A DNA stretch of 64,000 bases from Candidatus Poseidoniaceae archaeon (GCA_049606035.1 JBMYVD010000004.1:2313-66312), one strand, 5' to 3'; counted from the first letter of the stretch, positions 13,593-64,000 are shown. Notes: generated from the sequence alone by a model not told the origin. Made by a program: numbers and translations.

Positions 13593-13598
13593 ACGGGA

Positions 13599-15572: not shown

Positions 15573-15592
15573 TGCTCCGCAACGAATTGCGT

Positions 15593-15603
15593 TAGTATAT
15601 ACC
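15593..15603 (-). promoter_or_regulatory. TATA-box-like element for the FAS1-cupredoxin gene
   Basis: The minus strand reads GGTATATACTA, centred about 26 nt upstream of the ATG at 15572. This would fit a leaderless archaeal transcript. Confidence 0.35.
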
Positions 15604-15656
15604 ATTTTGTTTCGATACGCATTCTAAAACCGTGACACTTAGCATAAATGCGCTCC

Positions 15657-46822: not shown

Positions 46823-46843
46823 GCCCTGTAAGGGCTTGTTTTT
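46820..46843 (+). terminator. Hairpin plus T-run terminator after the MBL gene
   Basis: AAGCCCT-GTA-AGGGCTT overlaps the TAA stop and is followed by GTTTTTGG. Confidence 0.55.
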
Positions 46844-46882
46844 GGTGAAACCCTAAGAGGGTGGTTCACTCTCTCTCGCACA

Positions 46883-47920
46883 ATGAGGTCACAGCGCAAG
46901 TCCAATAGTGACCTCGCAGTCAGTGAAGTCATCGGTGTCGTGATGCTTCTGGCGATGGTTATCACAATGATGGGAGGGGTGTTTGTATTCCTCACACCAT
47001 ACGTCAATGATTTTCAAGACAATACCGCATGGTCAAACGCAAATGGAATTGCTGAAAGGCTAGATGGTAGGATTGATGTCGTTGCAGGAGCAAGTGCTGA
47101 CACCGGACTTAGAACTACAATTCCCCTAACTATGAGCTCAATTTCTCCTATCATTAGTGCAGAAGTGTGGACTGTATCAGCAGATTTGACTGCAGGAGAA
47201 ATTGTAACAGTCGAGTACATTAATCAAACTACATTCGGTATTACCTCGGAAAATGAAACAGCCGACCGTGCAATAATTTGGACTGAAGGTGGGGAAGTCG
47301 AAATAACATTCAATGAAACTTACGAAGAGGTTTTGATAACCCATAATTTGAGTCTTGCAGACATTTATATCGTAACCATATTCGATGGAGAAAACGAGAT
47401 TCACAAGCATGCAAAGATACCAATTTCAGGATTAATGGTAAAGACCAAAGTTCAGACAGGTGAACATTCAATTGGACTACTGAACGATGCTCGATACGAC
47501 AAATTCTCTGATGAAACCTGGAGTATAACTTCAGCCCCTGACATGAATATAGAAGAATTATTCGACGGCACAATGAGGGCTAGTTTGTCTCTGAGAGACG
47601 TAGATACTGCAGGAGCGATTCCAGACGGCAGAAACGCTGTATTTGATATCCGTTCAGAAGGGCCAATTACTCTCTTTAGTGGTGATGCATGGAACTTCAG
47701 ATTTACATTTGAATCATCATTAGGACCAACAGTCGCCCCACAGATGACTGAAGGTTGGTTAACCGACTACAACCTCCACAGAGCGTCTAACACTCTAGAC
47801 CAGCATAGAGGTATCAGCCCGTGGTTAAGGGCAAGCGGAATCGATGGTCTGACAATAGACCACGGCAATTCTGTAATAGATCTTGAAATCGAATTGCAAT
47901 TGGTGGAGGTTAGCAGATGA
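46883..47920 (+). CDS. Archaeal type IV pilin-like protein (class III signal peptide, DUF1628/Pilin_N-like N-terminus) with a large globular domain
   Basis: MRSQRKSNSDLAVSEVIGVVMLLAMVITMMGGVFVFL matches the archaeal pilin N-terminal pattern (..R(A/G)VSPVIGVVLLVAIT..). Its stop overlaps the next start as ATGA. Confidence 0.7.
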   Translation: MRSQRKSNSDLAVSEVIGVVMLLAMVITMMGGVFVFLTPYVNDFQDNTAWSNANGIAERLDGRIDVVAGASADTGLRTTIPLTMSSISPIISAEVWTVSADLTAGEIVTVEYINQTTFGITSENETADRAIIWTEGGEVEITFNETYEEVLITHNLSLADIYIVTIFDGENEIHKHAKIPISGLMVKTKVQTGEHSIGLLNDARYDKFSDETWSITSAPDMNIEELFDGTMRASLSLRDVDTAGAIPDGRNAVFDIRSEGPITLFSGDAWNFRFTFESSLGPTVAPQMTEGWLTDYNLHRASNTLDQHRGISPWLRASGIDGLTIDHGNSVIDLEIELQLVEVSR

Positions 47921-49965
47921 TTCGCAACAACCTCCGCAGAGACGAGGAAGCAGTAAGCGCGGCTGTAGCCACGGTCCTACTCTTTGGTGGAGTAGTTTCA
48001 ATTATTGGAATTATGTTACTTTCATTGATGCCGGTTATACAAGAATTGGAGGGTTCGCTCAAAAGAAATGATATGCAAGCCCAAATGGAAATAATGGCAC
48101 ACGAGGTCACATTACTTTCTGAATCAGGATTACCCGGTGACTCAAGTCAAGTCGAACTCATTCCGGTCGATGGAGAACTCAGATGGGATAGATTCAGAGG
48201 AGGGATGTGGTATTCTGCATCTTGGTATGAGGGTGATACTTTCAGAATCCAAGGAGCTTTAGACTTGGATAGAGATATCGATGTGAGGCATGCTGAAAGC
48301 AACGTACAAGCGATTTGCTATGAGGACATGAGACTGGGGCCGGATAGGCCATTCATCTTTACACCGAATAATCAAACCGATACAGTACTAGTAACTCCCA
48401 AACACGGTTTGACAATACCGCTTGGCCCTGTACAAATTGAACACGCTGGGATAGGCCACTCCCTTTCAATAGGAGAAGTCATGCAACTAGATTCAGACTA
48501 CGAAATAAAATCCAGTCATGATTTAGTTGGCTTACAAATAAAAGGTGATTCAGGAGTTGCACTGATACCACCTTCCAAGGCAAATCCCGCAACTGGCAAG
48601 GGGCAACATTGGGCAATTCCTCTACCATCGGGAGAAACTACCATCGAAGTCTTCGCTGACGATGACATCCTTGTTCAATGGCATACTCTCACCAATTCTG
48701 GACAAGAAGCGGTGCCTCAAACCAATGCGGTAAGGATAGCAAATTCATGGACAAAAACATTCAATCTGTCCGAGATTAGTTTAGTGGAGATAGTTACTGA
48801 CGTAGATGCGCATCTGATGATTTACCATGGCGATTCTGGCAAAACATCTCTGCTGGGAGAAGAGGGAAATTATCTCTCTAAGCACTTCATAGCACCTTAT
48901 CAATCTGGAAATTTGTCATTCTCTAATCCTAGCCAAAATGCTGCAACTATTACATGGAAAAATGGCGGTATATCAGTACCTGCCAATCAAACTATCGAAG
49001 TCGAGTGGCCTCCTTCGAACATCGACAGCGCTGCAATCTTAGAAAGTAGCGAGAATGTTCTTGTCCAGTTGAAACTAAATGGCAAAGGAATGACATTCTT
49101 GCCAGCTATTGACACAGGTCAAATCACTGGTCTAGAATTCATTGAAGATAATTCACAGACGATAATCAACTATTCCTCTGAGTATGATGACTATCAATCA
49201 AAATTAGCAAAAGATGGAAATTCAGGGGTTCTAGCATTAGAGGATGATGGAGCCATGCGTTGTATTGCAATAGACCAGACTGCATCAGGATGGATCTCAA
49301 CAACTCTGCCGTGGAAATCAATGAATGGTATACCAGAAGGGCAAATCATTACTTCTTGGAGAGACGGCGACCACCCGGCAAGTATTGAGATTACTTTGAT
49401 CGGAACAGAAGGAGATGCCACCCACGCTAACCTAGCCACTGCATGGGCATTCCATATCTCGAGACTAACTTACGAATTTGACACCTCGATTACTGGACTA
49501 GAAGTTGCATGGTCTGCTGGTGCAGTTGTTACAAATCATCCCGAGTTAGACCCGACGATACTAGTTGGGCCAACAGATAGACAAGGTCCCGGACCAAGGT
49601 TTAGCGCAACGATTCCTTCTATGCACCCTACTAAAACATCAGTTACTGGTAGCGGGATAATGGATCTTGACATTGAATTATCCATGAGAGAAAGTTTAGC
49701 ATCAACTACAGCATTTGACGTTAGGAGAGGATGGGTAGGACCTTACGGAGATGCGGTTGCTTCTTGGGCAAGCACGAGCCTAGAAACCTCTGAAGACTGG
49801 ATAGTTAATCCAGGTAGAATTGACTTACTTACTGACTATGTTGGCTGGGTACCTGTTCCTACAGTTGGACCTAGCGAAGCCGTATGGCACACAGCAGGGC
49901 AACCAATTCAGTTCAATCTACAAATAAGTAGCCTGAATGTTGAAATTTCGGAGGCAGGGTCATGA
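47917..49965 (+). CDS. Large (682 aa) type IV pilin-like protein
   Basis: MIRNNLRRDEEAVSAAVATVLLFGGVVSIIGIMLLSL has a charged head, an AVS motif and a hydrophobic helix. ATGA overlaps occur at both ends (47917-47920 and 49962-49965). Confidence 0.6.
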   Translation: MIRNNLRRDEEAVSAAVATVLLFGGVVSIIGIMLLSLMPVIQELEGSLKRNDMQAQMEIMAHEVTLLSESGLPGDSSQVELIPVDGELRWDRFRGGMWYSASWYEGDTFRIQGALDLDRDIDVRHAESNVQAICYEDMRLGPDRPFIFTPNNQTDTVLVTPKHGLTIPLGPVQIEHAGIGHSLSIGEVMQLDSDYEIKSSHDLVGLQIKGDSGVALIPPSKANPATGKGQHWAIPLPSGETTIEVFADDDILVQWHTLTNSGQEAVPQTNAVRIANSWTKTFNLSEISLVEIVTDVDAHLMIYHGDSGKTSLLGEEGNYLSKHFIAPYQSGNLSFSNPSQNAATITWKNGGISVPANQTIEVEWPPSNIDSAAILESSENVLVQLKLNGKGMTFLPAIDTGQITGLEFIEDNSQTIINYSSEYDDYQSKLAKDGNSGVLALEDDGAMRCIAIDQTASGWISTTLPWKSMNGIPEGQIITSWRDGDHPASIEITLIGTEGDATHANLATAWAFHISRLTYEFDTSITGLEVAWSAGAVVTNHPELDPTILVGPTDRQGPGPRFSATIPSMHPTKTSVTGSGIMDLDIELSMRESLASTTAFDVRRGWVGPYGDAVASWASTSLETSEDWIVNPGRIDLLTDYVGWVPVPTVGPSEAVWHTAGQPIQFNLQISSLNVEISEAGS

Positions 49966-50432
49966 CGAGTAGATTAGTCGAGGACGAGGCAGGGGCAAGT
50001 ACTGAACTTGGCTATATTTTCACTTTCATGCTCGGTGTATTGTTCCTCTCAATGTTTAGCGTCTGGGCGTTTGGTCTAGAAACCTCAACAAGAGAAAACT
50101 GGAATACAACCGCCGTTGATGTAAACATGGCAGATATTGCTGCTGCTGTCGAAAGGGCCGATACGGCAAGCAGACAAGACTCCAGTGTGAGTTACGCAGA
50201 AGTTGTGACATGGAGATTAACGGAAGCCGATGAAACAGAATTTGTTCTCACCCTAGATGACACGGGCCTATCACTTGACCATAGTGAGAATGAACTGGAC
50301 AGAGAGGTTTCGATATCAGGAACAGGATATGGCACGTATGATGGAAGAATCAACCTTTCAGGAACCGCAGAAATTTGGGTCGTCTACCACGAAGGTGTGA
50401 CCTATCTATCAACAACTAGACCAGATTTCTGA
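49962..50432 (+). CDS. Small type IV pilin-like protein
   Basis: MTSRLVEDEAGASTELGYIFTFMLGVLFLSMFSVWAF resembles the ..GVST.LGYVLTLGI.. N-termini of minor pilin-like proteins in haloarchaeal pilus loci. That comparison is from memory and unverified. Confidence 0.55.
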   Translation: MTSRLVEDEAGASTELGYIFTFMLGVLFLSMFSVWAFGLETSTRENWNTTAVDVNMADIAAAVERADTASRQDSSVSYAEVVTWRLTEADETEFVLTLDDTGLSLDHSENELDREVSISGTGYGTYDGRINLSGTAEIWVVYHEGVTYLSTTRPDF

Positions 50433-52958
50433 TCATCTGCCCATCACAGCGGTATGTACCATCATCTGTACTTCCCGCATTCTAGTCTGAGCACCTAATT
50501 CTCTGAAGACCGATAGTGCTCTTTGAAGGTATTCCATCCTTCGTTGTCTATCGGGGGCGACTCCACCTAATCTTGCTAATAGTTCACCGATTTGCATTCT
50601 CAAATCGTTTGCTTCAGAGATAACCAGTGCTTCTCGATATCTTTCCAATGCTTCTTCGATTCTACCGCTGTCTTGTAGAACCTCGCCCAACAAAATTGAA
50701 ACTTCAACCAAGGCAAGCGGGTCTCCTGCTTCCCCCATTGTTGATAGTGCATCTGTATAGTGATGTAAAGCCAAATCTGAATCGCCAGACTTTGCGTAAT
50801 ATCTTCCAAGTACAGCTCTTGCTCTAGCATGCAATATTGCATCACCGCTAGATTCAGACCTCTCATAGGAGGACAACGCGTGGTCTCTTGCTCTATCACT
50901 CTCACCCAAATCGAGTAACGCTCTTGCCAATACAATCTGAGCAGGAATCAATTCTGGAGAATCATCTCCATTTAGAATACTCTCGACTTCACCATAGGCC
51001 TCCAATGCCTTCGTTTTATCTCCGTTTCTTCGAAGGATATATCCCATATTGTTGTAGGAGCGAGCAGCACCTACCGCATCACCCATAGAGATGAATAATT
51101 CTAGGGACTTCCTGTGCATTCCAAGGCTTCCTTCTGAATCTCCACGCTTCAGAGCAATGTCTGCTAAATTAGAAACAATGTCTGCGATAACATCGTCCAA
51201 ACCTGCTGCCTCGGCTGGTGGTTTTGCTTGGTTGAATGCTTCTTCAGCTTCATCGAAGCGGCCGAGAAGGGCCAGTACTTCTCCCCTGAGTCTATCAACT
51301 CTGCATGCGCTGTCTGCACCTACTGATTTTGTATCAATAGATTCCAATAAACCTAACAGCTCAATGTGTCCTTCTTTAATCAAGTCTCTACCTTGCTCTA
51401 CTACCAATTTTGTAGCATCTTCGTGCCTTGAAGAAGAAATTAAGTGGTAGATTAACTCAAGAGCAATTTGGCTTGATTTAGTTTGTTTATTGTACCAGGC
51501 AACTGCTTTGTTGTGAAGATCTTCTTTAGACTGTTTGTCCAGACTTTGTAGAAGGAATTCTCTGATTAAGTCGTGAACATCATAAGTGCCTGAATCAGCA
51601 TTGCGGGCTAGACCGGATTCGACTAGCGAATCTAGTTCGTCAGTGTTCAGACCTTGTTCCGTTAGGGCCTCTAATTCGATAGGTTCACGAAATACGGATA
51701 GAGCTCCGAGTAAGCGCTTTTGCTCGCCAGACAGTTTAGAGAAAATCTCGATATTAACATAATTTTCCAGTGATTCGTGGAACGCACCTGCTGATGCTCC
51801 ACGATTAATCAATTCCAATACAAGAGGATGACCACGACTTAAGGAGTGTATGTACAGTAATTTTTCTTGGTCCAAGTCGTCAAAGGCAGAGAGAAGGGAC
51901 CTAGTTGATTCTTGGTCCAAGCCTTCTAGGGGGAGAACCAATGAAACAATTCTACCATCAGCGTCTTTGAGTGGGACGACCTCCTTGAAGGAGCGAGAAA
52001 AGATTACCAGTCCAACGTCACCTTCACACTCGACAAGGCCTCTGGATAGTGCTTGAATTGTTTGGTGTAGGGTCTTATCACTTACCTTGTGGTAATCATC
52101 GATAACGATTAGAGCTGGAGAACTAGCAAGAGAATCAACGATTATTCTTGCTGCATCAGCAGACTTTGGAACCGGAGTAGCAGAAATGTAATCAGCTAAC
52201 ATTGAATCTCCAATATTCGATAACCAATCAGCAATGCTCTCCAAGAATGCTCGACTTCCCTCCCAATCTTGACATCTATGATACATCAAATTCCTTCGAT
52301 GCATGAATGATTCAATCACTTTTGCTGCCATAGAAGTTTTTCCAATACCTGCTATCCCAGGAACCATCAAAGTCGTTGACCTAGCCTCAAGAAGGTTGAC
52401 CATGTTTTCTAATTCCGTTGACCGGCCATAGAAATGCCTCAATCTTGGCAAATCGCCAAGGCTAGTGACAAGTTGTTTCTCAACATGCTTCGAGAGGTCT
52501 CTTTCTACCAGGTCCGCTGAAAGGGAGCGGACATCCAGGACCCCGTTGTCATCTAGATACCTTATGACATCGACAGGCCTCATAGTAAACGGCAACTTAT
52601 CTTGGATTTCTCCAAGCGAAGATGCTATAGTGTTCCCACCAGGTAGGATTGCTCTGAGTTGGAATTCTCTAAGGTTCTTCCATGTCTCATCAGCCAATTT
52701 CATCCCAGATTCTGTCAAAAAGTAGGCTTTACGCTTTCTGCTAACACCTTGAACGTGGGCCTGCCTCTCGATTAGAAGTCCTTGGTCCTTCAATCCTGCA
52801 ATAGCCCTTGGAACGTTAGAGCGAGCAATCGCAACCGCATTTGCAATCCCCATTTGTGATAGAGCAAATGGAACTTCGACTGAATTCATAAAGTCGGAAA
52901 AATCAGAGAGGTGTAGCAAAATTCTCTCTTGAACACCCGGCTTTGGTCTGGTCGCCAT
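50433..52958 (-). CDS. wHTH - STAND/AAA ATPase - TPR signal-transduction protein
   Basis: The N-terminal winged-helix-like region (LSQMGIANAVAIARSNVPRAIAGLKDQGLLIERQ) is an inferred assignment. Walker A LMVPGIAGIGKTSMA and Walker B ALIVIDDYHKV. The C-terminal third consists of TPR-like repeats (ARSYNNMGYILRRNGDKTKALEAY etc.). Confidence 0.8.
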   Translation of the reverse strand: MATRPKPGVQERILLHLSDFSDFMNSVEVPFALSQMGIANAVAIARSNVPRAIAGLKDQGLLIERQAHVQGVSRKRKAYFLTESGMKLADETWKNLREFQLRAILPGGNTIASSLGEIQDKLPFTMRPVDVIRYLDDNGVLDVRSLSADLVERDLSKHVEKQLVTSLGDLPRLRHFYGRSTELENMVNLLEARSTTLMVPGIAGIGKTSMAAKVIESFMHRRNLMYHRCQDWEGSRAFLESIADWLSNIGDSMLADYISATPVPKSADAARIIVDSLASSPALIVIDDYHKVSDKTLHQTIQALSRGLVECEGDVGLVIFSRSFKEVVPLKDADGRIVSLVLPLEGLDQESTRSLLSAFDDLDQEKLLYIHSLSRGHPLVLELINRGASAGAFHESLENYVNIEIFSKLSGEQKRLLGALSVFREPIELEALTEQGLNTDELDSLVESGLARNADSGTYDVHDLIREFLLQSLDKQSKEDLHNKAVAWYNKQTKSSQIALELIYHLISSSRHEDATKLVVEQGRDLIKEGHIELLGLLESIDTKSVGADSACRVDRLRGEVLALLGRFDEAEEAFNQAKPPAEAAGLDDVIADIVSNLADIALKRGDSEGSLGMHRKSLELFISMGDAVGAARSYNNMGYILRRNGDKTKALEAYGEVESILNGDDSPELIPAQIVLARALLDLGESDRARDHALSSYERSESSGDAILHARARAVLGRYYAKSGDSDLALHHYTDALSTMGEAGDPLALVEVSILLGEVLQDSGRIEEALERYREALVISEANDLRMQIGELLARLGGVAPDRQRRMEYLQRALSVFRELGAQTRMREVQMMVHTAVMGR

Positions 52959-53011
52959 AGCAAATCATTCTCCTAGTACTCTTAGAGTGTTGTGTATTTC
53001 CGTGCTGGAAA

Positions 53012-56000
53012 TCACTGCTGAGGTGGCCTGTAGTTTGGATCTGCAACCCATTGATTGGTCTGAGCATCCCAAATCCATCCCGGATGCTGAGGCTGAGCAG
53101 CAGGAACAGGAGCAGGAGCAGGTGTTAGTTCACCTGCAGAAGCCGCTGCTTGTTCTGCAGCCCTTGCTTTCGCCCAAGCATACGGGTCTTCCTCTTTTTG
53201 CATCTCAGCCAGTGCGGCTTCATCATCTTCAAATTCTTCCTCAAACTCAAGGAAGAAGAATGCTCCAACAGCAAGAAGTATCGCGATGACTACCACCGCA
53301 ATAACAATCCAAACCCAAGAAGAAACACCCTCAGTTACAGATTCTCCCTTCTTCAGAGTAATTGAGTTACCATCATCCTTTCCAATAAATTGCCCATCTT
53401 GCTCGAAGTATATCTCGAAACTTCCGTCTCTATCGAGAGCTGAGGATGTGATATCCATATTCCAAAGGCCGTCTTCACCAACAACGGTATCATTCAGTTT
53501 GATGTCTCCCTTGACAAGTCTTGCTGTGACTACAGAATTAGGCAAACCAGTACCTTGGAACTCAGCAGAGTCACCGAACTTTACTGCACCTTCATCTGTT
53601 CTCTCAGCCGTGAACTCGACACCTCTGACAATGAAATTAACCTGGTATGAGTACTCTACAGAATCGAAGGCATCTCTTGCTTCGAACATCACACCCTGCA
53701 TGGACCAGTCAGAGATTTCACTTGATGTTTGATACATCGAATCCATCGGGTTGTAAACCGCTTTACCCTCTGGAGTGATTCTGATGTGATATGCATAATC
53801 GTCATCCAAAGCAGATGATGGGTCATCGTAGATATCGAAGACCATGTGGCTAGACTGTGGACCGACCCCATCAGAATCGTTGAAGAAGTCTAGTAGATTG
53901 ATTTCTGCTCCAGCCCCACACTTGTCAAAAGCACTGGATTTCTCATCACAGAAGATTGTGATAGTATCAACCCAGCCAGTTGGATTGAATGTTGGCTTGA
54001 CATTGTCTGCATCTGCTGGGTTATCGATTACGATGCGTACCGTTTCCATCAACGAGTAGTCTACACCATCATAAGCCCTAACTTGAACTTCATATTGCTG
54101 GTCGTGAATCAAATTGCTGGTATCCCAATATGTGTACCATGCACCGTTGGGTTGGAACGAGGTAATTGGATTTGGACCGTTGTTTAATTCGATTCCGCTT
54201 GCAAGGTCAATGATTGTAATTTCGACGCGCGTAACCTGTCCATCATTATCCCTTGCCACACCACTGATAATTGTATCATCTGATGCCCTTACACTCTCCA
54301 TTGGCAGTGGTTCGCTGACCTGGACAATCGGAATACGGTTGTCGTTATCGATTGTGATAGTGATTACTTCTGGATCACATACGTCCACAACTTCATGGCA
54401 ATAGTTTGAGTCACTTGCCCAAACTGTGAATGTGTAGTCACCGCTGGGGAGTGAAGAGAAGTTCCATGTGTCTGACCAAACAGCCGCCCCACCTGCGTTT
54501 GCAGGATAGTTTGCGGAGTAATTGTTAGGTCCTTGAACGCTGAACCAAATGTCTCTGATATCGCTTCCCTGGACACCCTGATAATCATCAGAGGCTGTTC
54601 CTGTAAAGAGAACTTCCTGGCCATCGTGAGTAGAACCATCCAATGGAGAATCAAGGTTGATTGTTGGTGGATTTATATTAAGTTTGAATACTCGAGTGCT
54701 TACGATTGATTCTTCTAATCCATCGTAGGACCTGACTCTGAATGTAACATCCTCTTCGAAGTGATTCGCCATATCCCAATCGAAACTCCATGTCTTGAAA
54801 GGCCAGTTTGTCATTGTAACTTCACCGTTAGCACCGGATGTATCTGTTGCAAGATACCAATCTTGGCTTCCGTGAGGTTGGATTTCCACCCTCTTGATAT
54901 CACCAAATTGTTTCAGCCATGAATCATAATCGTTGAAGTACGGACCGGATTGACCATCATGTGCAGACCCGGTTAGAGAAATAGTTCTTGCAAATGAGGT
55001 ACCGTCGTTTTGGTCTACACTTACAGATGGTGCAATATTAACCAAGTTGATGACTTCATCAACCATTCCGGTTAGAGTAAAATCGTGTGTTGATGTTCCC
55101 TTACTGAACTTCTTTGCCTCGACTGAATATGTTGGCAATTCTCGGTTACCTGATTGACAGTCTGGGTCTTGGTTGTCAGCTAATGTGTCACCATCATTGT
55201 CTATGCCGTCGCTACAGGAATCTTCACCTTGGTCAGTTGCTTGATGATTCCAGTTTCTATCGATGTGGAAGTTTGATGGAAGTGTAACCCACGGCGTGTA
55301 TCCATACGGGTCGGTTGTCATGTTGTACAACGGCTTTCCATTTGCATCCTTGATTGTTACAAGGGCGTCTGAAACTTGAGAATTGTCAGCTTTGACTTGA
55401 TACCTTACGAGTTCTCCTTGCTCGACTTGGACACCCCATGCAGTGTTTTGATTTTGGATGTGGATCTTCGACCTATCGAAGTTCTGCACATCAGAGTAAG
55501 TGAATGTTGTAGCATTCTGATTTAGTTCCATAGCCAGAGGCATGAACTTAGGAGGCCACACACCAGTAAGTGGAACTTGTAAGCACACTGAAGAGTCCCA
55601 TGGGCACTCTCTATCATCCCAAGTTAGCATTACAGGATACATCTGATTGCCACCTGGGTCTGGCATGAACTCGCTCTGTACTGCAACTCTAGATTCTGTA
55701 ACGTTGTAAATCTGGGAGGCGTTCGAGTAAGTGTTACCGGAGAAGTAAGCGATTGAACCATACTTGTTTCCATAATTGTCATCGTACAGCGAGATATTTG
55801 CAGCAAAACCACCCACCTCTATGTCGTTATTTTGGGCGTTTACAATTCCGCCCTTAATTCTGAATCCATCTCCTACGTTATTTGTTACAGTGTTGTCCAT
55901 GAATGTAGCTGAAGCCATGTAAACGTGGAATGCAGGACACGGGAAATCTCCTCCATACATCTCAACAGAATTACATGTTCCAGTGTTGTTTGAGATTATG

Positions 56001-57307
56001 TTGTTTGCAAAATACAGACGTGCTTTGCTAGGAGAAGGAACGTTCCATCCCTGGTCCTTGTGGTGATATTCACCAATCAAAACTGGTTCCTTTCCTGTAT
56101 TGAGAATCGTATTGTTTTCTGCACTTACATCAGATTCACCATAAATCCACAGACCGTTCCATCCACCAATCGGGCCAATTGTGTTTCCATTTGCGGTTAC
56201 AAACGAAGATCGAATACCAAATCCGGAACCTTCTGCCGCTCCTGAAATTGTATTTCTTTCTGCAAGCACAATCGCACCATCGTATGCAGTAATTCCTGCC
56301 CCATCAGTAGGAGTGATTACGTTGTCTGAAATTACGAATGTGTAATTTTGGCCATTCGCAGATAAATGCGAGTTTGTATCGATAGCGTTACATTTGGTGG
56401 TGACTGTAGAGTTTGTCAGATAACCACTGCTTGAGCGCAAGAAGGCTCCGTAAGAGTTCTGTGTGATTGAAATAGTATCCATTCTCACGAAAGAATTCTC
56501 CAGATAAATTGCTGAGCGACCTCCACCTTGGGCGCCGCAATCGGTCTCTTCACCGGTGAAAGCGGAGTTCAGTACCTGCATAACCACGAGACCTGCTCCA
56601 GCACCATATGCCTGTATTGCAGCACCGTGGTAACCCTCTTCGTCGATTCCAACCTCAAAGGTTCCTCCGTCTAATGTAGGCGATGCACCGTTGATTGCCA
56701 ACACGTTTGTTGTATTGATATTCCTGAAAGTTGGATTGTTCACATTCAAACTTGCACCGTCGAAGACCATTGCTCCGTACTTGATCGACCCTTGACCGTC
56801 GATATCGACAGGGATTCCGTATGCACCGTCTAGTGTCACATGGTTTAAGCGAGTCAGTGACTGGTCGATTGTAGAGTCTAGGTATATTCCAGAACCGCAA
56901 GACATGTCTGGATTGAATATGCCTGTTACGTAACATCTGCCAGTTTGGTTAGGTGCTGGTGCTGCCGGCGCACCCCAGATGAAACGGATTGGAGAACCTG
57001 TACTTGCTTGTGATGCCCCACAAGAACTGTCACCTGCACAAATCGAACCTTGGATGTTAATGTTCTTGTCAGCAGGTATGTTGATTGTAGTGCCAGCGTT
57101 TATGATTAATTTCGCACCACCTGCGACCAATAAGTCACCGTCCATGTTCATGACTCCAGTCCAAGTTTCTGTACCGGTAATTGTTCCAGATGATGTCTCG
57201 TTCACAGCCATTGCTGACGGAGCGGTTGATACCATGGTTACAAACAGGGAAACTAGGAATAAACTCACTAAACCTACACTCTTACTTTTTTGGACGTTTA
57301 CAGACAT
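53012..57307 (-). CDS. Giant (about 1,431 aa) surface protein: right-handed parallel beta-helix (PbH1/NosD-like) plus Ig-like domains, a TM and a cytoplasmic acidic/Pro-rich tail
   Basis: Signal peptide MSVNVQKSKSVGLVSLFLVSLFVTMVSTAPSAMA (ATG 57307; an alternative GTG lies at 57352). Beta-helix repeats NTISGAAEGSGFGIRSS..NGNTIGP..NNTILNTG. Cys-bounded motif CSDGIDNDGDTLADNQDPDC. Ig-like modules VRSYDGLEES and VRAYDGVDYS. TM segment WIVIAVVVIAILLAVGAFFFL. Confidence 0.85.
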   Translation of the reverse strand: MSVNVQKSKSVGLVSLFLVSLFVTMVSTAPSAMAVNETSSGTITGTETWTGVMNMDGDLLVAGGAKLIINAGTTINIPADKNINIQGSICAGDSSCGASQASTGSPIRFIWGAPAAPAPNQTGRCYVTGIFNPDMSCGSGIYLDSTIDQSLTRLNHVTLDGAYGIPVDIDGQGSIKYGAMVFDGASLNVNNPTFRNINTTNVLAINGASPTLDGGTFEVGIDEEGYHGAAIQAYGAGAGLVVMQVLNSAFTGEETDCGAQGGGRSAIYLENSFVRMDTISITQNSYGAFLRSSSGYLTNSTVTTKCNAIDTNSHLSANGQNYTFVISDNVITPTDGAGITAYDGAIVLAERNTISGAAEGSGFGIRSSFVTANGNTIGPIGGWNGLWIYGESDVSAENNTILNTGKEPVLIGEYHHKDQGWNVPSPSKARLYFANNIISNNTGTCNSVEMYGGDFPCPAFHVYMASATFMDNTVTNNVGDGFRIKGGIVNAQNNDIEVGGFAANISLYDDNYGNKYGSIAYFSGNTYSNASQIYNVTESRVAVQSEFMPDPGGNQMYPVMLTWDDRECPWDSSVCLQVPLTGVWPPKFMPLAMELNQNATTFTYSDVQNFDRSKIHIQNQNTAWGVQVEQGELVRYQVKADNSQVSDALVTIKDANGKPLYNMTTDPYGYTPWVTLPSNFHIDRNWNHQATDQGEDSCSDGIDNDGDTLADNQDPDCQSGNRELPTYSVEAKKFSKGTSTHDFTLTGMVDEVINLVNIAPSVSVDQNDGTSFARTISLTGSAHDGQSGPYFNDYDSWLKQFGDIKRVEIQPHGSQDWYLATDTSGANGEVTMTNWPFKTWSFDWDMANHFEEDVTFRVRSYDGLEESIVSTRVFKLNINPPTINLDSPLDGSTHDGQEVLFTGTASDDYQGVQGSDIRDIWFSVQGPNNYSANYPANAGGAAVWSDTWNFSSLPSGDYTFTVWASDSNYCHEVVDVCDPEVITITIDNDNRIPIVQVSEPLPMESVRASDDTIISGVARDNDGQVTRVEITIIDLASGIELNNGPNPITSFQPNGAWYTYWDTSNLIHDQQYEVQVRAYDGVDYSLMETVRIVIDNPADADNVKPTFNPTGWVDTITIFCDEKSSAFDKCGAGAEINLLDFFNDSDGVGPQSSHMVFDIYDDPSSALDDDYAYHIRITPEGKAVYNPMDSMYQTSSEISDWSMQGVMFEARDAFDSVEYSYQVNFIVRGVEFTAERTDEGAVKFGDSAEFQGTGLPNSVVTARLVKGDIKLNDTVVGEDGLWNMDITSSALDRDGSFEIYFEQDGQFIGKDDGNSITLKKGESVTEGVSSWVWIVIAVVVIAILLAVGAFFFLEFEEEFEDDEAALAEMQKEEDPYAWAKARAAEQAAASAGELTPAPAPVPAAQPQHPGWIWDAQTNQWVADPNYRPPQQ

Positions 57308-57372
57308 AATACACCCTCGGCATGTTGTCCAAATACTGGACCGCCTTAACACATTGGGATAGATTTCAATTG

Positions 57373-57453
57373 AAAAGTATCAATTATCAAGGAAAATATC
57401 ATCTTTTTTGACCATAAAAAGTTACAAAATATCAATTTGTAGAAAAAATATCA
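57373..57453 (-). promoter_or_regulatory. Four direct copies of AAAATATCA (TGATATTTT in gene sense) in the AT-rich region upstream of the beta-helix giant gene
   Basis: Copies at 57373-57382 (with one inserted G), 57393-57401, 57426-57434 and 57445-57453. They form two pairs spaced 19 bp apart, with the pairs offset by 52 bp. Confidence 0.45.
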
Positions 57454-57502
57454 TATCTCGAGAGAGGACACATTACCTTCTCAGTGCACCTTTCAGAACA
57501 TA

Positions 57503-58720
57503 TTAGCAGGCAACTGAGGTACGTATTTGATTCAACCATGCTTTCCCATCAATCGCTCCATAACCCCACCGAGAATCATGTTCTATTCCATCCTCGAGTG
57601 GAACTGCCGAGTTCATCAATGCTGTTTTTACTTGAGTGAGACACCCCTCATCTGGACTTATCAAATCGGGTTCTGCTTCTAGAATTAAAGCTAGAATTCC
57701 CGAAACGAAAACAGTAGCATCACTAGTACCGGTTGAAGAATAGTATTCATCATCGAATGCAGTAGATACGATTGATACGCCTGGAGCGGACACCTCTGGT
57801 TTCTTGTTTGGATTTTGGTAAAGTCCTGAATTCTCAACACTAGTATATCCGACAGAAGAGCCTTCCCAAATATCTCCATTAACGTCCAAAGCGCCAACTG
57901 AAATTACTCCGGGCACATCCGAAGGAGTTGCAACCCTACCATCGTCATCTGGCCCACCGTCATTTCCAGCGGCTGCGACAACGTAAACGCCATTTGCAAG
58001 CGATTGTTTGACAGCATTGGAGGTAGGGCCATCAGTGTTTGCATTGGGGTCGCTTTCCCCACCCAAAGATAGAGAAATAATGTCGGCTTGGAATGTTTTC
58101 CAGCACCACTCAATCGCACTAGCCACTACGTTCTGGTCCCCGCTATTTCCACCATCACCATCATCACCAAGGGCTGCTGCCATACCAAGGGTAACACCTG
58201 GAGCAACACCTTTGAGATATCCATCAGAAACCAAAATGCCTGCCATCATGGTACCGTGAGCGAGAGAACCCTGGTCAGAGATTTGATTGGAACCCGTGAT
58301 AAAATCCTTGAATACCAAATCGATTGATTCCAAGTCGGAGTGACTGGGATCGATACCAGTGTCAACCATACAAACTCGAATTCCATCTCCAGTATAACCC
58401 AGTGATTGTAATTCTCTTGCACCAGATTCCTCAAAAGCCCACTCAGAGTTTGGTGGAGGTATTTCGATAAAAAGCAGTTGACTTCGCCAAACTGCCCACA
58501 TAATCAAAATCAAAACTAGGAAGAATCCCGCGCTAATCATTCGTTGTCGTAGCCGCTTCGGTCTAGAAACAACAGGTACAGGAGTTGGTGCCCAACCCAA
58601 TACTTCGCTTCTCCATCCCTCTTGGTGACCAATGGTTGCTGAGTCAGCTGCGGATAAGATCCGATAGTCGGAGGGTTCAGGAATAAACTCAACATTGCCG
58701 AGTTCCTTTTCCTCCCACAT
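57503..58720 (-). CDS. Membrane-anchored subtilisin-like (S8) serine protease
   Basis: About 60 N-terminal cytoplasmic residues, then the TM segment ISAGFFLVLILIMWAVW. Triad motifs VCMVDTGIDPSH, SLAHGTMMAG and STGTSDATVFVSG. Confidence 0.9.
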   Translation of the reverse strand: MWEEKELGNVEFIPEPSDYRILSAADSATIGHQEGWRSEVLGWAPTPVPVVSRPKRLRQRMISAGFFLVLILIMWAVWRSQLLFIEIPPPNSEWAFEESGARELQSLGYTGDGIRVCMVDTGIDPSHSDLESIDLVFKDFITGSNQISDQGSLAHGTMMAGILVSDGYLKGVAPGVTLGMAAALGDDGDGGNSGDQNVVASAIEWCWKTFQADIISLSLGGESDPNANTDGPTSNAVKQSLANGVYVVAAAGNDGGPDDDGRVATPSDVPGVISVGALDVNGDIWEGSSVGYTSVENSGLYQNPNKKPEVSAPGVSIVSTAFDDEYYSSTGTSDATVFVSGILALILEAEPDLISPDEGCLTQVKTALMNSAVPLEDGIEHDSRWGYGAIDGKAWLNQIRTSVAC

Positions 58721-58748
58721 AGAGCACCACTACCACTTCAATGGCTTC

Positions 58749-58758
58749 AATATATGTC
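58749..58758 (-). promoter_or_regulatory. TATA-box-like element upstream of the anchored subtilase gene
   Basis: The minus strand reads ACATATATTG, about 30-35 nt upstream of the ATG at 58720. Confidence 0.3.
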
Positions 58759-58810
58759 TGAAACCAATAAGATCTACCCCTATGAAGGAAGCAGAATCTC
58801 TATTGGGAAA

Positions 58811-61800
58811 TCAGAAGCGTCCAGAGGAGCCTCTTCTTGCGGTCTTGTATCCACCGTACATTACCAGTCCGGTAAGTAGAACAATAACTACAACCAACCA
58901 ATCGGAGTCGCCATCTTCATCTGCTATGTTCGAGAAGGTGATGGTAATGATTTCCGATTCTGCACTATCAACGTGTGTAGGCGTTCCAATTACATCCAAA
59001 GTGACCTTCAATCTGGCCTTACCTGGAGGTAGGTCAGAGTAATCGAATGTTGCATATGCGGTACCATTGGCTGGAACTGTGATAGTTACTTGCTGTTGTG
59101 GATAGACAGTGTCACCGAGTTCGTCTGCTTCTAAGTAGACAATGACATCACTTGCTGTTAGGAATCCTTCGTTTGTGATTGGAATGATGAATTGACCATC
59201 AGCGTTTGCCTTTGCGTCAGCATTTCTTGGCTCTACTCCACCTTCATCGATTACTAATTTAGCAACTGATATGATCGCTGTTGTCGATTGAGACTGCTCA
59301 GCGAAGTCACCCTCGCTATTTGCAGTGAAGGAGACCGGGCACTCATCTTCAGCAGCTGCATCAGCAGGTGCATAAATTGTGAATGATTGACTTCTCTCAC
59401 TATTTGCCGCCACAGTTACATTAGAAATCGGTGGTGCGACAGTCCATCCTTCACAAGATAGCTGAGATTCGACTGTTACAGTGTCGTCACCGTTTCCGTT
59501 GTTTACAATTCTCAGAGTTACAATTGTCTCATCACCGACTCCGACTCCGATCTTTTCTGGAGCATCGACGAATGAGATGTTATACTGCTGTGGAATGAAT
59601 ACTCTCGCACTTGCTTCGCTTGCTCCAGCGTCTGCGGTAAATCTCATGTTTACAGCATGACCATCATCATAGGTTTGTGATTGATTCTTTAGAGGCAGAG
59701 TTACCCTAACATCAACTTCAGTGTACAATAGTTGATTTGCATCAGAGTTGTTCATTCCAATACCCATTGCTACGTCCATTGCTTCGGTCCAATCACCAGT
59801 TGAGTTCTTGTATTCAATAATCCAGAACTCAGCGTCTTGTGTTACTCCTGTTGAACCAGATGCAGTAAAAGTGTCAGAAATTTCTGTTCCTTCGTATGTT
59901 AGGCCCAACTTCATTGTGATTATCTTGTAACCGTTACCGTCTTCCTTAGCAGTTAAGTCTGTTAAGTCAGATGGGTCAAAGTCTGCTGTTTCTGAATCAA
60001 CCGAGATAATCTCAACCACAAGGTCCGAGTTAACACGGCGAGTGAACTCTAACAAGCGGTCCTCAGCAGTGTCTTGGATTACATCTACAGTCAATCCAGC
60101 ATTGTATTCCATTACTAGGTTTAAATCGTGCTGGATTGATTCGAATTCGCTATCGAAAGAAACGCTACCAGCTGGTAGAATCATTTCGATTTCACCATTA
60201 GCATCGAACGGTACTTCCCATTCAATGCCATCTCCTAGGTCAATTTCAACGTCAACTCCATCAGCAACATCACCGGCATGGAATTCATCGCTATCTATAG
60301 TTAGCCATGTTGTAGAGATTGAAATCAATCCACCCTTCTCCATTACAAGGTCAAGAGTTGCACCTTCTTGAACAGAGGCCTCAAGCAATCCAATTGCAAT
60401 TCCACCACCGTTCTCATCGACATCGGTTCCTTCAACCACAACAATCCAGTTACCTGGTTCGATGTTTGCATTCCATGAAAGTACGTCATTTTCAAACACT
60501 ACGTCCTGAATTACGATAGCGTCACGTACAATTCCGCTAGCAGGATAGAGGGTGACTGTGGCACCATCTAATCTTGTGCTAGCACCCAAAATATCGGTTA
60601 CGTTTCCTGAAACTTCAACAAGTCCTGCGCTCATCTCGAAATCACGGCTTTCGTGCGTGTCGTTTACAATGTAGAAGGATGAGTTTCCATCTTCGTAATT
60701 CACTGTATCGAATCCAGACTTCTCGGCCACTACTGTGTAGTTTTCACGGATTGGCACGAATAGTTTCCAAGTTCCCTCCTCATCGGTTGTTACATTTTCA
60801 GAGAATCCACTCTCGGAGCTAATTGAAACATTAACAGATTCGATTCCTTCACCAGAGTTTGGAGTATCATCCTCATTTAGGTCCCAGAAGATTTTTCCAC
60901 CAACCAATACATGCTTGTCCACGTAAACAGTACCTGCATCCCATGTGTTACCGACTACTGTGTCAGCTGAGTTGTAGATGCCAACATCTAGAGACCACAT
61001 CTCAAGAGTGTCTGTTCTGTTTAGCATCAGTGTCCAGTTACCTGGCATTAGAACTTCATTGATCATTCCTTCATTGTCAGAAGGACCTAGGCTTACATTA
61101 CCCAAGCCATCAAGGCTTACAGCGGTAATTCTTGTTGCTGTGATGTTTGATTCTGTTAGTGATTCTTTCAACTGCATTGTTACGTTCAATGCAGTCTTAG
61201 TCTTCCAGTTCAAATCGGTAACTGCACCATCTAATACTAGGAAATCTCTGAAGATTTCAGTTTCATTGCTGTCAGCAATGTAATCTGAAACTTCAACAAA
61301 CCATTCGCCTGCAGAAATGTATTCAGCAAACGTACCGTTTTCATCGGTTGCTAGTGGATAGAAGTCATCACCTGCTTCGTTTCTCAACCATACTGTTGAG
61401 TTCTCGAGTGGGAATCCACTTTCCATCAGTACGGTACCTGTAACGAGGTATTCAGGTGTTATCGCTATGTCAATAGGGTCGTCTATTGTATCTAAACCGA
61501 TGTCAATTGAAGGAAGACCAGGTGCAAACTTCCTGAAGTCGCTTGCGTTCTCATCCCTAGGGTCATCTTCAATCATAGTGATGATGTAACTGCCAACGGA
61601 TAGTTCGACTGTTAACTCACCTGTATTAATATCGTACATGTCTTCAGTAACTTCAACATCAATACCGAAATCGTTGATTGAAGTAATATTGAATGTAGGT
61701 GATACGGCAGTACCATTCTCCCATGAAAGGTCGTCGTTGGTATCTAAGAAGAGTCTTAGAGTAAGTGAAACATTAGCTGGTGATGCAACAACATCTACTC

Positions 61801-64000
61801 TGTTAGTTTCGTTCTCAGTTGAGACAGATACAGGCTGAACGTTCATGTCAGAGTTTGATGCGGAAATTGTGTAAGTTCCATTTGCTAGGTACATGAAGAA
61901 GTTACCAGCATCGTCTATTTCATCTCTCCACTCGAGTCCGTTTTCGTCAGTAGCAATGATTTCTGAACCGCTTGCTCCTGAAATACCACTTCCCCAAGTA
62001 ATTCCACTTCCATTGACAGGAGATTCTCTCAACCAAACAGTTCCTTGTAGTGCATTGGAATCTTGGAGAATCAAGTCTCTATCGACATCTTCCAATGCAT
62101 CTGTAACGAGCATACCCGCTGTCAAGACATTGCTTGTTAATCCAGCAAAGCTTTCGACGTTGATGTGGAATTCAACACCTGCTGGCATTCTTATAGAGTA
62201 TGTTCCGTTTTCTCCATCAGTAGTAGTCTTCAATATGATATTACCAGAGCGTGCTTCAACATTCACGTTGGTCGCAGGTTCTCTCATCTCCACCGGGATG
62301 TCGGAAGGAGTGTTGTATTGAGGATCCTGCATTAGGTCGGCTAGACCAGGAATAGCCCAAACAGTTCCATTTACCCATGCGCTTACTGCATAAGTCAAAT
62401 CCAATTCAACATCATCTTCCGCAACTTCCAATTCATGCCACAACACGACATTCTCATCTGTTTCATCTGAAATAATCCAGTCGCCCATGAATATCTCTGC
62501 ATGCACAAGACCGGTATCGTCTGATTGTGCAGTAATTGTGATGTCGTTGAGGTCTGTTCCTAAGGAACTAGAGAAGGTCAGTGTTCTGTTAGAAAGGTCG
62601 ATTCCAGAGCCACCGTCATTCAACTGAATAATTACGTCACGCATTGTTGGCACAGGCACTACTAGGGTGATATTCTGTGAATCAAGACCTACACTGAAGT
62701 TGTGTTCGACCTCATACCATCCGTCTTCATCAATGTCCACTCTCCACTGATAGTCACCAGTTGCTAGCGGCCCATAGGTGAAGTTACCGTTTTCATCTGT
62801 TTCAATCAGTACTGGTTCTGAACCATCTTCAATTCCAAAGTCGAGTAATTCGATAGTCTCGTTCGGAAGTGGTGTTGGGTCACCATTTGTGAAGTAATCA
62901 GCAAACAATGTGTCTTGGAATATCGAACCTGGCATCTTCATCTCCAAATCAGTAGTAGGTTCAATGCCTACCTCGACAGGATCTGGTAGCAGTATTTCTC
63001 TACCGTTTTCCATCATTGCGATCATGTTGTAGGTTCCTGGCATTAATCCGGTTTTGTAGAATGAACCAGGTGCTACCATAGGTCCAGAGAATGTTCCCTC
63101 ACCAATGAATAGACCTGTACCGTTGGCAGTTCCAATTCCTTCGTAAACGCCAGTACCCTCGAATGTCTCTCCATCAAGGAACTTAACGACAATCACTTCT
63201 CCATCAGCGGTCATTCTACCGTTTGCATCAACCGTGCCCTCGAAGAGGTAGGTGTCTGCTTCTGAGGTTAAACAAGCAGTATGTGTTGAGTTAACAGTTT
63301 CGTCATCCACTATTTCTTCAAAGGTAGGTAGCGATTCTATTGTTTCGTTACCCACTGTCTCCTCAATACATGTTGGAGCGTCATAATCAATCCATTCCGC
63401 AACGATTGAACCTGCACCGGTGAATGTTGCGTTAGCAGTGTATGAGCGGCCATCTAGGACGTTACGAGTGTAGTTACCAGTAAATCCGTAAACGATTCCT
63501 GTGTTACCTTGAGTATCGAAAGTTCCGTTCTCAGTGAAAGTAACTTCACCAGTTCCTTGAATAATTCTTGAATCACCAGCTTCGGTGGTGAAAGAACCGC
63601 TTGTTGTTGAGACAGAGTAATTAGTGGACATACCCCATACGTTGCGTAGGATAAAGTCCATTCCGTCTAAGGCGTCTCCTTCGAAAGACTCGTGTCCTGT
63701 CCAAGTAACCGTACCTGATACGCCACTTGAATCGACTGCAATGTCAAAGTCTGTGTCGATAGAAGTACCTTCCTCTTGGTCAGCTTGTGCTCCTGTGATG
63801 TTTTGTGTCACTTCACCCATCCAAGACATGTTTGCAACCTTACCTAGCAGAGCAGTAATCAAGTTAGTTTCACGGTTATCGTTCGTGTTAACAGTCAAGT
63901 CGCCCAAACCAGCAGCGTATTCGCCAGTCTGAATTGTGTCCTTTGCTTCTGCATCATCGAATACACCTGCATATGCTGAAACTCTAATCTTTCCAGCAGG
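58811..64000 (-). CDS. Giant surface protein (more than 1,729 aa, 5' end beyond the window) with Cna-B/SdrD-B and carboxypeptidase-regulatory-like repeats, CARDB-like modules and a C-terminal TM
   Basis: The track start at 63907 is a TTG. I checked that the frame stays open to 64000, and the reported N-terminus has no signal peptide, so the gene is truncated by the window. Repeats include GGKIFWDLNEDDTPNSGEGIESVNVSISSESGFSENVTTDEEGTWKLFVP and GTVLMESGFPLENSTVWLRNEAGDDFYPLATDENGTF. The C-terminus reads WLVVVIVLLTGLVMYGGYKTARRGSSGRF. Confidence 0.85.
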   Translation of the reverse strand, partial: PAGKIRVSAYAGVFDDAEAKDTIQTGEYAAGLGDLTVNTNDNRETNLITALLGKVANMSWMGEVTQNITGAQADQEEGTSIDTDFDIAVDSSGVSGTVTWTGHESFEGDALDGMDFILRNVWGMSTNYSVSTTSGSFTTEAGDSRIIQGTGEVTFTENGTFDTQGNTGIVYGFTGNYTRNVLDGRSYTANATFTGAGSIVAEWIDYDAPTCIEETVGNETIESLPTFEEIVDDETVNSTHTACLTSEADTYLFEGTVDANGRMTADGEVIVVKFLDGETFEGTGVYEGIGTANGTGLFIGEGTFSGPMVAPGSFYKTGLMPGTYNMIAMMENGREILLPDPVEVGIEPTTDLEMKMPGSIFQDTLFADYFTNGDPTPLPNETIELLDFGIEDGSEPVLIETDENGNFTYGPLATGDYQWRVDIDEDGWYEVEHNFSVGLDSQNITLVVPVPTMRDVIIQLNDGGSGIDLSNRTLTFSSSLGTDLNDITITAQSDDTGLVHAEIFMGDWIISDETDENVVLWHELEVAEDDVELDLTYAVSAWVNGTVWAIPGLADLMQDPQYNTPSDIPVEMREPATNVNVEARSGNIILKTTTDGENGTYSIRMPAGVEFHINVESFAGLTSNVLTAGMLVTDALEDVDRDLILQDSNALQGTVWLRESPVNGSGITWGSGISGASGSEIIATDENGLEWRDEIDDAGNFFMYLANGTYTISASNSDMNVQPVSVSTENETNRVDVVASPANVSLTLRLFLDTNDDLSWENGTAVSPTFNITSINDFGIDVEVTEDMYDINTGELTVELSVGSYIITMIEDDPRDENASDFRKFAPGLPSIDIGLDTIDDPIDIAITPEYLVTGTVLMESGFPLENSTVWLRNEAGDDFYPLATDENGTFAEYISAGEWFVEVSDYIADSNETEIFRDFLVLDGAVTDLNWKTKTALNVTMQLKESLTESNITATRITAVSLDGLGNVSLGPSDNEGMINEVLMPGNWTLMLNRTDTLEMWSLDVGIYNSADTVVGNTWDAGTVYVDKHVLVGGKIFWDLNEDDTPNSGEGIESVNVSISSESGFSENVTTDEEGTWKLFVPIRENYTVVAEKSGFDTVNYEDGNSSFYIVNDTHESRDFEMSAGLVEVSGNVTDILGASTRLDGATVTLYPASGIVRDAIVIQDVVFENDVLSWNANIEPGNWIVVVEGTDVDENGGGIAIGLLEASVQEGATLDLVMEKGGLISISTTWLTIDSDEFHAGDVADGVDVEIDLGDGIEWEVPFDANGEIEMILPAGSVSFDSEFESIQHDLNLVMEYNAGLTVDVIQDTAEDRLLEFTRRVNSDLVVEIISVDSETADFDPSDLTDLTAKEDGNGYKIITMKLGLTYEGTEISDTFTASGSTGVTQDAEFWIIEYKNSTGDWTEAMDVAMGIGMNNSDANQLLYTEVDVRVTLPLKNQSQTYDDGHAVNMRFTADAGASEASARVFIPQQYNISFVDAPEKIGVGVGDETIVTLRIVNNGNGDDTVTVESQLSCEGWTVAPPISNVTVAANSERSQSFTIYAPADAAAEDECPVSFTANSEGDFAEQSQSTTAIISVAKLVIDEGGVEPRNADAKANADGQFIIPITNEGFLTASDVIVYLEADELGDTVYPQQQVTITVPANGTAYATFDYSDLPPGKARLKVTLDVIGTPTHVDSAESEIITITFSNIADEDGDSDWLVVVIVLLTGLVMYGGYKTARRGSSGRF

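Follow-up and report, generated by a model that had tools for sequence, protein, structure and literature searches.

The Poseidoniales (Marine Group II) are among the most abundant archaea of the surface ocean; they are uncultured, and their envelope is known only from genomes. A typical AglB, the archaeal oligosaccharyltransferase, has ~600-1,000 residues. The archaellum, thrombospondin, and flotillin have been discussed as adhesion traits (Rinke et al., PMC6461757); the locus considered here is not described in the passages of that paper found by term search. It lies in a 64,000-nucleotide (nt) stretch of a Candidatus Poseidoniaceae archaeon genome (GCA_049606035.1, JBMYVD010000004.1:2313-66312; “the window” below), which is C4:2313-66312 of a 109-contig, 83%-complete genome, and it runs from position 46883 to the window end. 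A listing of open reading frames (ORFs) and profile searches give seven genes there: three pilin-like genes (the triad); a regulator gene with winged helix-turn-helix (wHTH), STAND NTPase, and tetratricopeptide repeat (TPR) parts; and genes for a beta-helix membrane protein, an anchored S8 subtilase, and a giant protein that runs past the window end. The closest described counterparts of the products are euryarchaeal type IV pilus-like systems, the TPR sensor PH0952, right-handed beta-helix proteins such as the adhesin PfbA, subtilisin, and AglB itself.

An earlier reading of the sequence (the original prediction) joined these genes into one regulated module for attaching to and degrading particles or prey surfaces. 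Its statement that every gene encodes a surface or appendage component or a sensor-regulator holds for all seven by profile search, and the genes lie where it placed them; its label for the last ORF, a “Cna-B giant,” does not stand. The reading favored here, to which we assign a probability of roughly 0.6, is that the 17 kb consist of a run of core envelope genes and an accessory pilin cassette, functionally separate units inside a frozen gene order. The most notable part of the locus is the giant, an AglB fusion found across the order and a novel form of an enzyme already known.

The giant AglB fusion

Read past the window end, the ORF encodes a complete protein of 3,179 residues (window 58811 to ~68350). 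The part inside the window ends in a C-terminal transmembrane helix, and its matches are to CarboxypepD_reg (74 bits) and further beta-sandwich families (CarbopepD_reg_2, NOMO1-like, DUF1416, and DUF4198); at E<=0.01 it has no match to Cna_B (PF05738) or SdrD_B. The CarboxypepD_reg-type families are presumably of the same broad beta-sandwich class (Pfam clans) as Cna_B and SdrD_B. Beyond the window, the N-terminal part contains an STT3 domain (PF02516; residues 403-800, 60.9 bits with a cut-off of 24.5) and matches Archaeoglobus fulgidus AglB-L (3waj) at 1.3e-8, the giant's SWWDYGF aligning to WWDYG of the A. fulgidus protein (AfAglB) and its tGGsDPWY, in the first external loop, to GGNDPWY. 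It is the sole STT3/WWDYG ORF in this 83%-complete assembly. All 70 Poseidoniales genomes of at least 90% completeness have exactly one AglB locus (70/70), with an open frame of ~3,100-3,400 residues wherever the contig permits. Because of the STT3 domain, the AglB-L alignment with its motifs, and the single copy, the supposed giant with collagen-adhesin-like repeats is identified as an oligosaccharyltransferase, and the Cna-B/SdrD-like adhesin label was dropped.

Nearly all of the giant's 48 sequons are in the beta-sandwich part that follows the STT3 domain. By its predicted architecture, the only N-glycosylation enzyme of the cell carries an extracellular rod, ~2,100 residues long and rich in sequons, which a second anchor ties to the membrane; the enzyme would transfer N-glycans to surface proteins. 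All genomes checked have such a fusion of enzyme and surface rod, ~3,200 residues in length, and would depend on it alone for N-glycosylation. In situ, oligosaccharyltransferase was one of the highly transcribed genes in an MGIIb genome (Damashek et al., PMC9723583); a full-text literature search found no paper joining “Poseidoniales” with “AglB.” In one single-contig genome (G041, C1:1447460-1449316) the AglB frame has only 1,603 residues, either a true truncation or an assembly error.

Coordinates for the locus and for related features elsewhere in the genome are collected in Table 1. The four minus-strand genes are co-directional, with gaps of 90, 150, and 53 nt. The presence of two giants within 17 kb is unremarkable (Poisson P ~0.13, our own calculation), because the 65 ORFs of at least 1,000 residues in this genome fill 16.8% of its length.

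Table 1. Features of the locus (window positions) and related loci elsewhere in the genome (contig positions).
Feature	Position	Strand	Remarks
Pilin-like gene 1	46883..47920	+	345 aa; first of translationally coupled triad; DUF7289 above cut-off
Pilin-like gene 2	47917..49965	+	682 aa; large globular part; DUF7289 below cut-off
Pilin-like gene 3	49962..50432	+	156 aa; DUF7266 above cut-off
wHTH-STAND NTPase-TPR regulator	50433..52958	-	841 aa; TPR_12, Walker A/B, PH0952 match
Beta-helix/Ig-domain type I membrane glycoprotein	53012..57307	-	1,431 aa from conserved ATG; AlphaFold2 model
(A/T)TGATAYTTT repeat array	57374..57454	-	AT-rich promoter spacer belonging to beta-helix gene
N-terminally membrane-anchored S8 subtilase	57503..58720	-	405 aa; Peptidase_S8 144 bits
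AglB oligosaccharyltransferase fusion	58811..64000	-	C-terminal 1,729 of 3,179 residues; ORF runs on to ~68350, past window end
Archaellum operon	C31:4620-12070		T2SSE ATPase locus; two archaellins, FlaH, FlaI, FlaJ; complete
C5 motor locus	C5:44983-47541		Split TadC-like pair and 411-aa ATPase; no pilin gene alongside
C10 motor locus	C10:27817-32803		510-aa ATPase, platform, and small pilin-like genes
Tail-bearing giants	C4:5822-10645 (window 3507-8282); C4:36998-42376 (window 34683-40055); C9:21997-25470; C12:19034-22510; C18:4033-9162		

Gene order and the pilin-like triad

Gene order was compared over ~32 kb around the STAND gene in ten genomes, with a control made up of all 38 ORFs of the contig in eight genomes from three families. 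The order giantB-MBL-triad-STAND-beta-helix-S8-AglB-PurD (MBL, metallo-beta-lactamase-type hydrolase) is identical in the ten genomes, whose proteins are 31-58% identical between families, the exception being two genomes of one genus (g7) without the triad. In the control, 26-31 of the 38 ORFs keep their order in the other families, including those for GAPDH, PheT, RNase HII, GltX, DnaJ, and PurD; strand is also conserved, save for one ORF in one genome (G028). The collinear core-genome block covers at least 66 kb of a contig of ~70 kb. Conservation of this kind is thus the background state in the order and no locus-specific evidence of linkage: with housekeeping genes and all the rest of the contig collinear, synteny is uninformative about a module.

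This frozen background agrees with another conserved cluster of >10 unrelated genes reported for Poseidoniales (PMC10877094), and conserved gene order in this group should not be taken as evidence of function without such a control. The original prediction named a loss of synteny in relatives as evidence against itself; the order is in fact kept across relatives. The co-localization that it expected in other marine archaeal metagenome-assembled genomes was likewise found in three families, but is not specific to the locus, the flanks being equally collinear, and no co-localization beyond the background gene order was seen among these families. A STAND orthologue was also sought outside the Poseidoniales, where the gene order would be scrambled, and none was found.

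A mobile island was considered and excluded: GC content is even (0.43-0.47), the region has no tRNA genes, and collinearity is strict. The block does contain indels. At window 12666-15605, a 668-aa protein combines three fasciclin domains with a plastocyanin-like one; among genomes whose flanks reach that stretch, it and its neighbor are found only in one of the same genus (G015). A 1,790-aa giant (giant A, window 34683-40055) is absent from genus g7.

The triad genes, on the plus strand, overlap by 4 nt each. Their N-termini (...SDLA/VSEVIGVVMLLAMVITMM in gene 1 and DEEA/VSAAVATVLLFGGVV in gene 2, with a slash at the putative cleavage site) resemble class III signal peptides: the leader is short and charged, the cleavage site is preceded by a small residue, and ~20 residues of hydrophobic helix follow. 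Gene 1 matches DUF7289 at 30.9 bits (cut-off 27) and, under its cut-off of 25.2, Pilin_N at 23.9 bits; gene 3 matches DUF7266 at 29.0 bits (cut-off 27.6), and the DUF7289 match of gene 2 (22.8 bits) is under cut-off. With class III signal-like N-termini throughout, and genes 1 and 3 above family cut-offs, the description of these genes as a pilin-like triad is well founded. Orthologues of gene 1 occupy the same place in two of the families (f1 and f2) and in part of the third (f3). The spacer between the MBL gene and pilin gene 1 (46823-46882) opens with a GC hairpin and then a T-run (GCCCTGTAAGGGCTTGTTTTT), a terminator-like arrangement which suggests that the triad may have its own transcript start.

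Among 151 Poseidoniales genomes of at least 85% completeness, pilin gene 2 was found in 103, and the triad is absent from 48. Every triad-lacking genome placed on a tree of the AglB domain falls in one clade (Shimodaira-Hasegawa-like approximate likelihood ratio test support 100), and because these genomes form a single clade the absence is read from the tree as one loss event. The STAND, beta-helix, S8, and AglB genes are kept in place in triad-lacking genomes; in the two g7 genomes, for example, the MBL gene adjoins the STAND gene, and the beta-helix, S8, AglB, and PurD genes are unaltered. The parts of the locus are therefore not gained and lost together (triad absent in 48/151, with STAND, beta-helix, S8, and AglB retained), which shows that the triad is dispensable and separable from its minus-strand neighbors.

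If the triad supplies subunits for a type IV pilus-like filament, as its predicted N-termini would allow, the motors and platform would be encoded on other contigs, with the 682-residue product of pilin gene 2 a candidate tip or adhesin subunit. Three T2SSE ATPase loci, read directly with their neighborhoods, are found in the genome (Table 1). The 411-aa ATPase of the C5 locus follows the triad exactly, both in presence (103 genomes) and in absence (48); of the 103 genomes with the triad, 102 also have the 510-aa ATPase of the C10 locus. The co-loss pattern is consistent with a role of the triad in a type IV pilus-like system, and a streamlined clade would have shed the pilus-type equipment (triad and two motor loci) all at once. 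As co-loss is one event, the triad-motor co-occurrence is statistically weak, and since it is nearly equal for both motors (103/103 and 102/103) it does not discriminate between C5 and C10. The C5 locus has no adjoining pilin gene, which would make it the more likely triad partner of the two.

The beta-helix gene and its minus-strand neighbors

An AlphaFold2 model of the beta-helix protein, built on 20 orthologues, has a right-handed beta-helix over residues 40-560 (mean predicted local distance difference test 78.6, predicted template modeling score 0.80). Orthologues carry PF13229 and are publicly annotated, in Poseidoniaceae, as “right-handed parallel beta-helix repeat-containing protein.” The protein also has a Big_7 match (34.7 bits) and 16 N-x-S/T sequons. 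The original prediction called it polysaccharide-lyase-like: the beta-helix fold was right, the lyase part found no support. In a Foldseek search against the PDB, template modeling (TM) scores are <=0.34 and identities 8-13%; the top match is the adhesin PfbA, and the lower matches are a mixture (a GH28 hydrolase, AlgE4 epimerase, PL6 lyases, tailspikes, and pertactin). Lyase profiles of Pfam and NCBIfam have no match in the protein, and lyases do not rank above the adhesin and hydrolases by fold, leaving the lyase reading unsupported.

The cytoplasmic tail is W-rich (including DPYAWAK and HPGWIWDAQTNQWVADPNY), and across the 20 orthologues its motifs DPYAWAK and PGWxWD..N.W..DPN hardly vary. 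This conservation suggests a receptor-like or an anchored structural role for the protein. In G015 (L007:10638-14966) the gene is in two frames, either a real truncation or an assembly error.

Conserved tails are found on other surface giants as well (Table 1). At least four share a near-identical cytoplasmic tail, ...P(E/P/D)GWTMEQWxxYG(H/Q)Q..., with a variant on C18, and other giants end in different W-rich tails. The shared tails suggest a common cytoplasmic partner, or a sorting signal, for surface giants. One of the tail-bearing giants (window 3507-8282; 1,591 aa) is a second S8 subtilase, with CARDB and Ig-like domains and a position conserved across families.

The spacer between the S8 and beta-helix genes is AT-rich (GC 0.33) and contains, at 57374-57454, five sense-strand copies of TGATA, with 0.48 expected (P=0.001), as stated by the original prediction, which had the minus-strand run interrupted by a repeat-bearing AT-rich promoter. 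Similar arrays are present in all four other genomes of the genus that were checked (4/4) and in two f3 genera (g3 and g4); none was found in f2, g7, or g9. This is the only intergenic co-oriented TGATA cluster in the genome, the others being within coding sequence, and no other spacer of the locus has the motif; no regulatory motif is common to the units. The array was accordingly rejected as a shared regulon signal. On this evidence from the spacer, the beta-helix gene is predicted to have its own regulated promoter, so that the minus-strand run would comprise at least two transcription units; expression of the beta-helix/Ig type I membrane glycoprotein would be under control of these repeats.

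A gap of 53 nt separates the STAND gene from the beta-helix gene upstream of it on the minus strand, and the two are probably co-transcribed; the end of the STAND gene abuts that of pilin gene 3 with 0 nt between, the pilin operon converging on it as originally described. The protein has a TPR array of ~300 residues (TPR_12, 87 bits), a Walker A (GIAGIGKTS), and a Walker B (VIDDYH); AAA_16 (32.1 bits) and nSTAND6 matches are under their cut-offs. Its closest solved relative is the TPR sensor PH0952 (6mfv; 9e-25, residues 170-484). The wHTH match is weak (HTH_Crp_2, 19.4 bits, below cut-off); with the NTPase motifs, TPR array, and PH0952 match, the wHTH-STAND-TPR description is otherwise sound. 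A single-copy orthologue is present in all 41 relatives (41/41), in three families, at 49-99% identity. Outside Poseidoniales no orthologue was found, only paralogues of <=33% identity, and no match in the sister family. The wHTH segment is conserved in all three families and is the same in orthologues with or without the TGATA array, so that there is no covariation of array and wHTH.

The remaining minus-strand gene is confidently placed as a membrane-anchored S8 protease, with an N-terminal anchor, a Peptidase_S8 domain (144 bits), and a match to subtilisin BPN' (3.5e-27). The motifs VDTGID, HGTMMAG, AAAGNDG, and GTSDAT supply the DTG, HGT, and GTS signatures and the oxyanion Asn. It probably processes surface proteins. 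Its cytoplasmic N-terminus (~45 residues) has a motif, (F/L)xPEPxDxR(I/L/M)L(S/T)A(A/V/I)D, kept across three families (orthologues L001-L019), which hints at an interaction on the cytoplasmic side.

Alternative readings and known systems

The adhesion-and-degradation module of the original prediction should not be adopted as such. That triad, STAND regulator, beta-helix protein, S8 protease, and giant form one regulated module for attachment to, and degradation of, particles or prey, with a ligand-gated switch, is highly doubtful. Each product is a surface or a regulatory protein, the arrangement is kept in every genome that has all the parts, and by fold the beta-helix is closest to a bacterial adhesin, PfbA; yet the synteny is no stronger than that of neighboring housekeeping genes, the triad was lost with the rest retained (a loss accompanied by that of motors on other contigs), the “adhesin” is the sole AglB, the beta-helix has generic fold matches (TM <=0.34) and no lyase family match, and the TGATA element is found at one promoter only. 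A narrower grouping would make the four minus-strand genes a module that builds and senses the envelope: AglB glycosylates and the S8 protease matures a beta-helix receptor, the TPR array reads its tail, and the wHTH feeds back on the TGATA promoter. This is unlikely, though several features fit it. Every genome examined has all four genes, side by side, the beta-helix and STAND genes lie just 53 nt apart, the tail motifs are near-invariant and the S8 protease has its conserved cytoplasmic N-terminal motif, the wHTH is conserved in orthologues of all three families, and the promoter array is conserved in two. However, their adjacency is inseparable from background collinearity, and without a STAND orthologue outside the order there is no independent synteny test; the array is missing in f2, g7, and g9 with the wHTH unchanged, and many other giants of the genome have W-rich tails of a similar kind. 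In its full form, as a self-contained Poseidoniales-specific AglB-S8-beta-helix-STAND run in which the tail (DPYAWAK ... HPGWxWD..NxW) is read by the TPR array and the wHTH acts on the TGATA promoter, we consider it quite unlikely; if true, it would be a one-step transmembrane signaling route from a surface glycoprotein to transcription.

The opposite extreme, that the genes are neighbors by descent only, with no interaction among units, as a chance result of a giant-rich genome (17%) and a frozen order, is very unlikely. The 65 ORFs of at least 1,000 residues, the collinearity of the whole contig, and the other conserved cluster of >10 unrelated Poseidoniales genes (PMC10877094) are what it would lead one to expect, but the short co-directional gaps and the common envelope theme of AglB, S8 protease, and sequon-bearing beta-helix make an enzyme-substrate relation likely, and AglB, as the only oligosaccharyltransferase, must serve the glycoproteins encoded alongside it. 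An Avs1-like antiviral defense pair, formed by the MBL hydrolase and the STAND-TPR protein, was also considered, since the MBL protein has weak Avs1a matches (NCBIfam 17.1 bits, PADLOC 13.8 bits) and the two genes are direct neighbors in triad-lacking genomes. The scores are far under the Avs1a cut-off of 420 bits, the STAND protein has no Avs match, and both genes are universal, single-copy, convergent core genes, unlike variable defense islands; on the scores and the core status of both genes the pair was rejected, as extremely improbable.

Several points weigh against the separate-units reading, core envelope run plus accessory pilin cassette. All seven products are envelope or regulatory proteins, and the short co-directional gaps make some functional coupling among the four minus-strand genes plausible. 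For the pilin cassette, one event in a genome-reducing clade (1.3-1.6 Mb) removed the triad and both motor loci alike, so that the triad-motor link is statistically weak, and the only prepilin peptidase A24 match in the genome, at 23.6 bits, is below its cut-off of 26.5. The findings sharpen the targets for metatranscriptomes, glycoproteomes, and cryo-tomograms.

Compared with known systems, the triad is most like euryarchaeal type IV pilus-like systems (haloarchaeal Pilin_N, DUF7289, and DUF7266 proteins, with PilB/PilC or TadA/TadC motors) in its class III-like N-termini and coupled genes, and in the T2SSE ATPases and T2SSF-like platform genes found elsewhere in the genome. It differs in having two very large subunits (345 and 682 aa), no motor gene on its ~70-kb contig, and a prepilin peptidase match that is sub-threshold.

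The beta-helix protein shares its fold class, with PF13229 in its orthologues, with PfbA of Streptococcus pneumoniae (4mr0), pertactin, PL6 and GH28 enzymes, and tailspikes, but at 8-13% identity and TM <=0.34 and with no catalytic family; unlike these, its helix heads a type I membrane protein with Ig domains and a conserved cytoplasmic tail. The STAND protein has the layout of PH0952 of Pyrococcus horikoshii (6mfv), MalT, and AfsR-SARP, with an N-terminal DNA-binding-type domain and a P-loop nucleotide-binding oligomerization domain with Walker A and B followed by TPRs; unlike them, it is an order-restricted single-copy core gene. Other Thermoplasmatota carry several STAND paralogues.

The giant resembles archaeal AglB/STT3 proteins (GT66; A. 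fulgidus AglB-L, PDB 3waj/3wak and 5gmy/7e9s) in its multi-pass STT3 domain (PF02516), the GGxDPWY aspartate of the first loop, a D-H-D stretch that aligns with the DHH of AfAglB, the WWDYG motif in an external domain, and its status as the single oligosaccharyltransferase gene. It differs from a typical AglB in its length (3,179 residues in this Poseidoniaceae genome), in ~390 additional membrane-spanning residues ahead of the STT3 domain, and in the ~2,100 residues of CarboxypepD_reg-type beta-sandwich that follow it, ending in a second, C-terminal transmembrane anchor.

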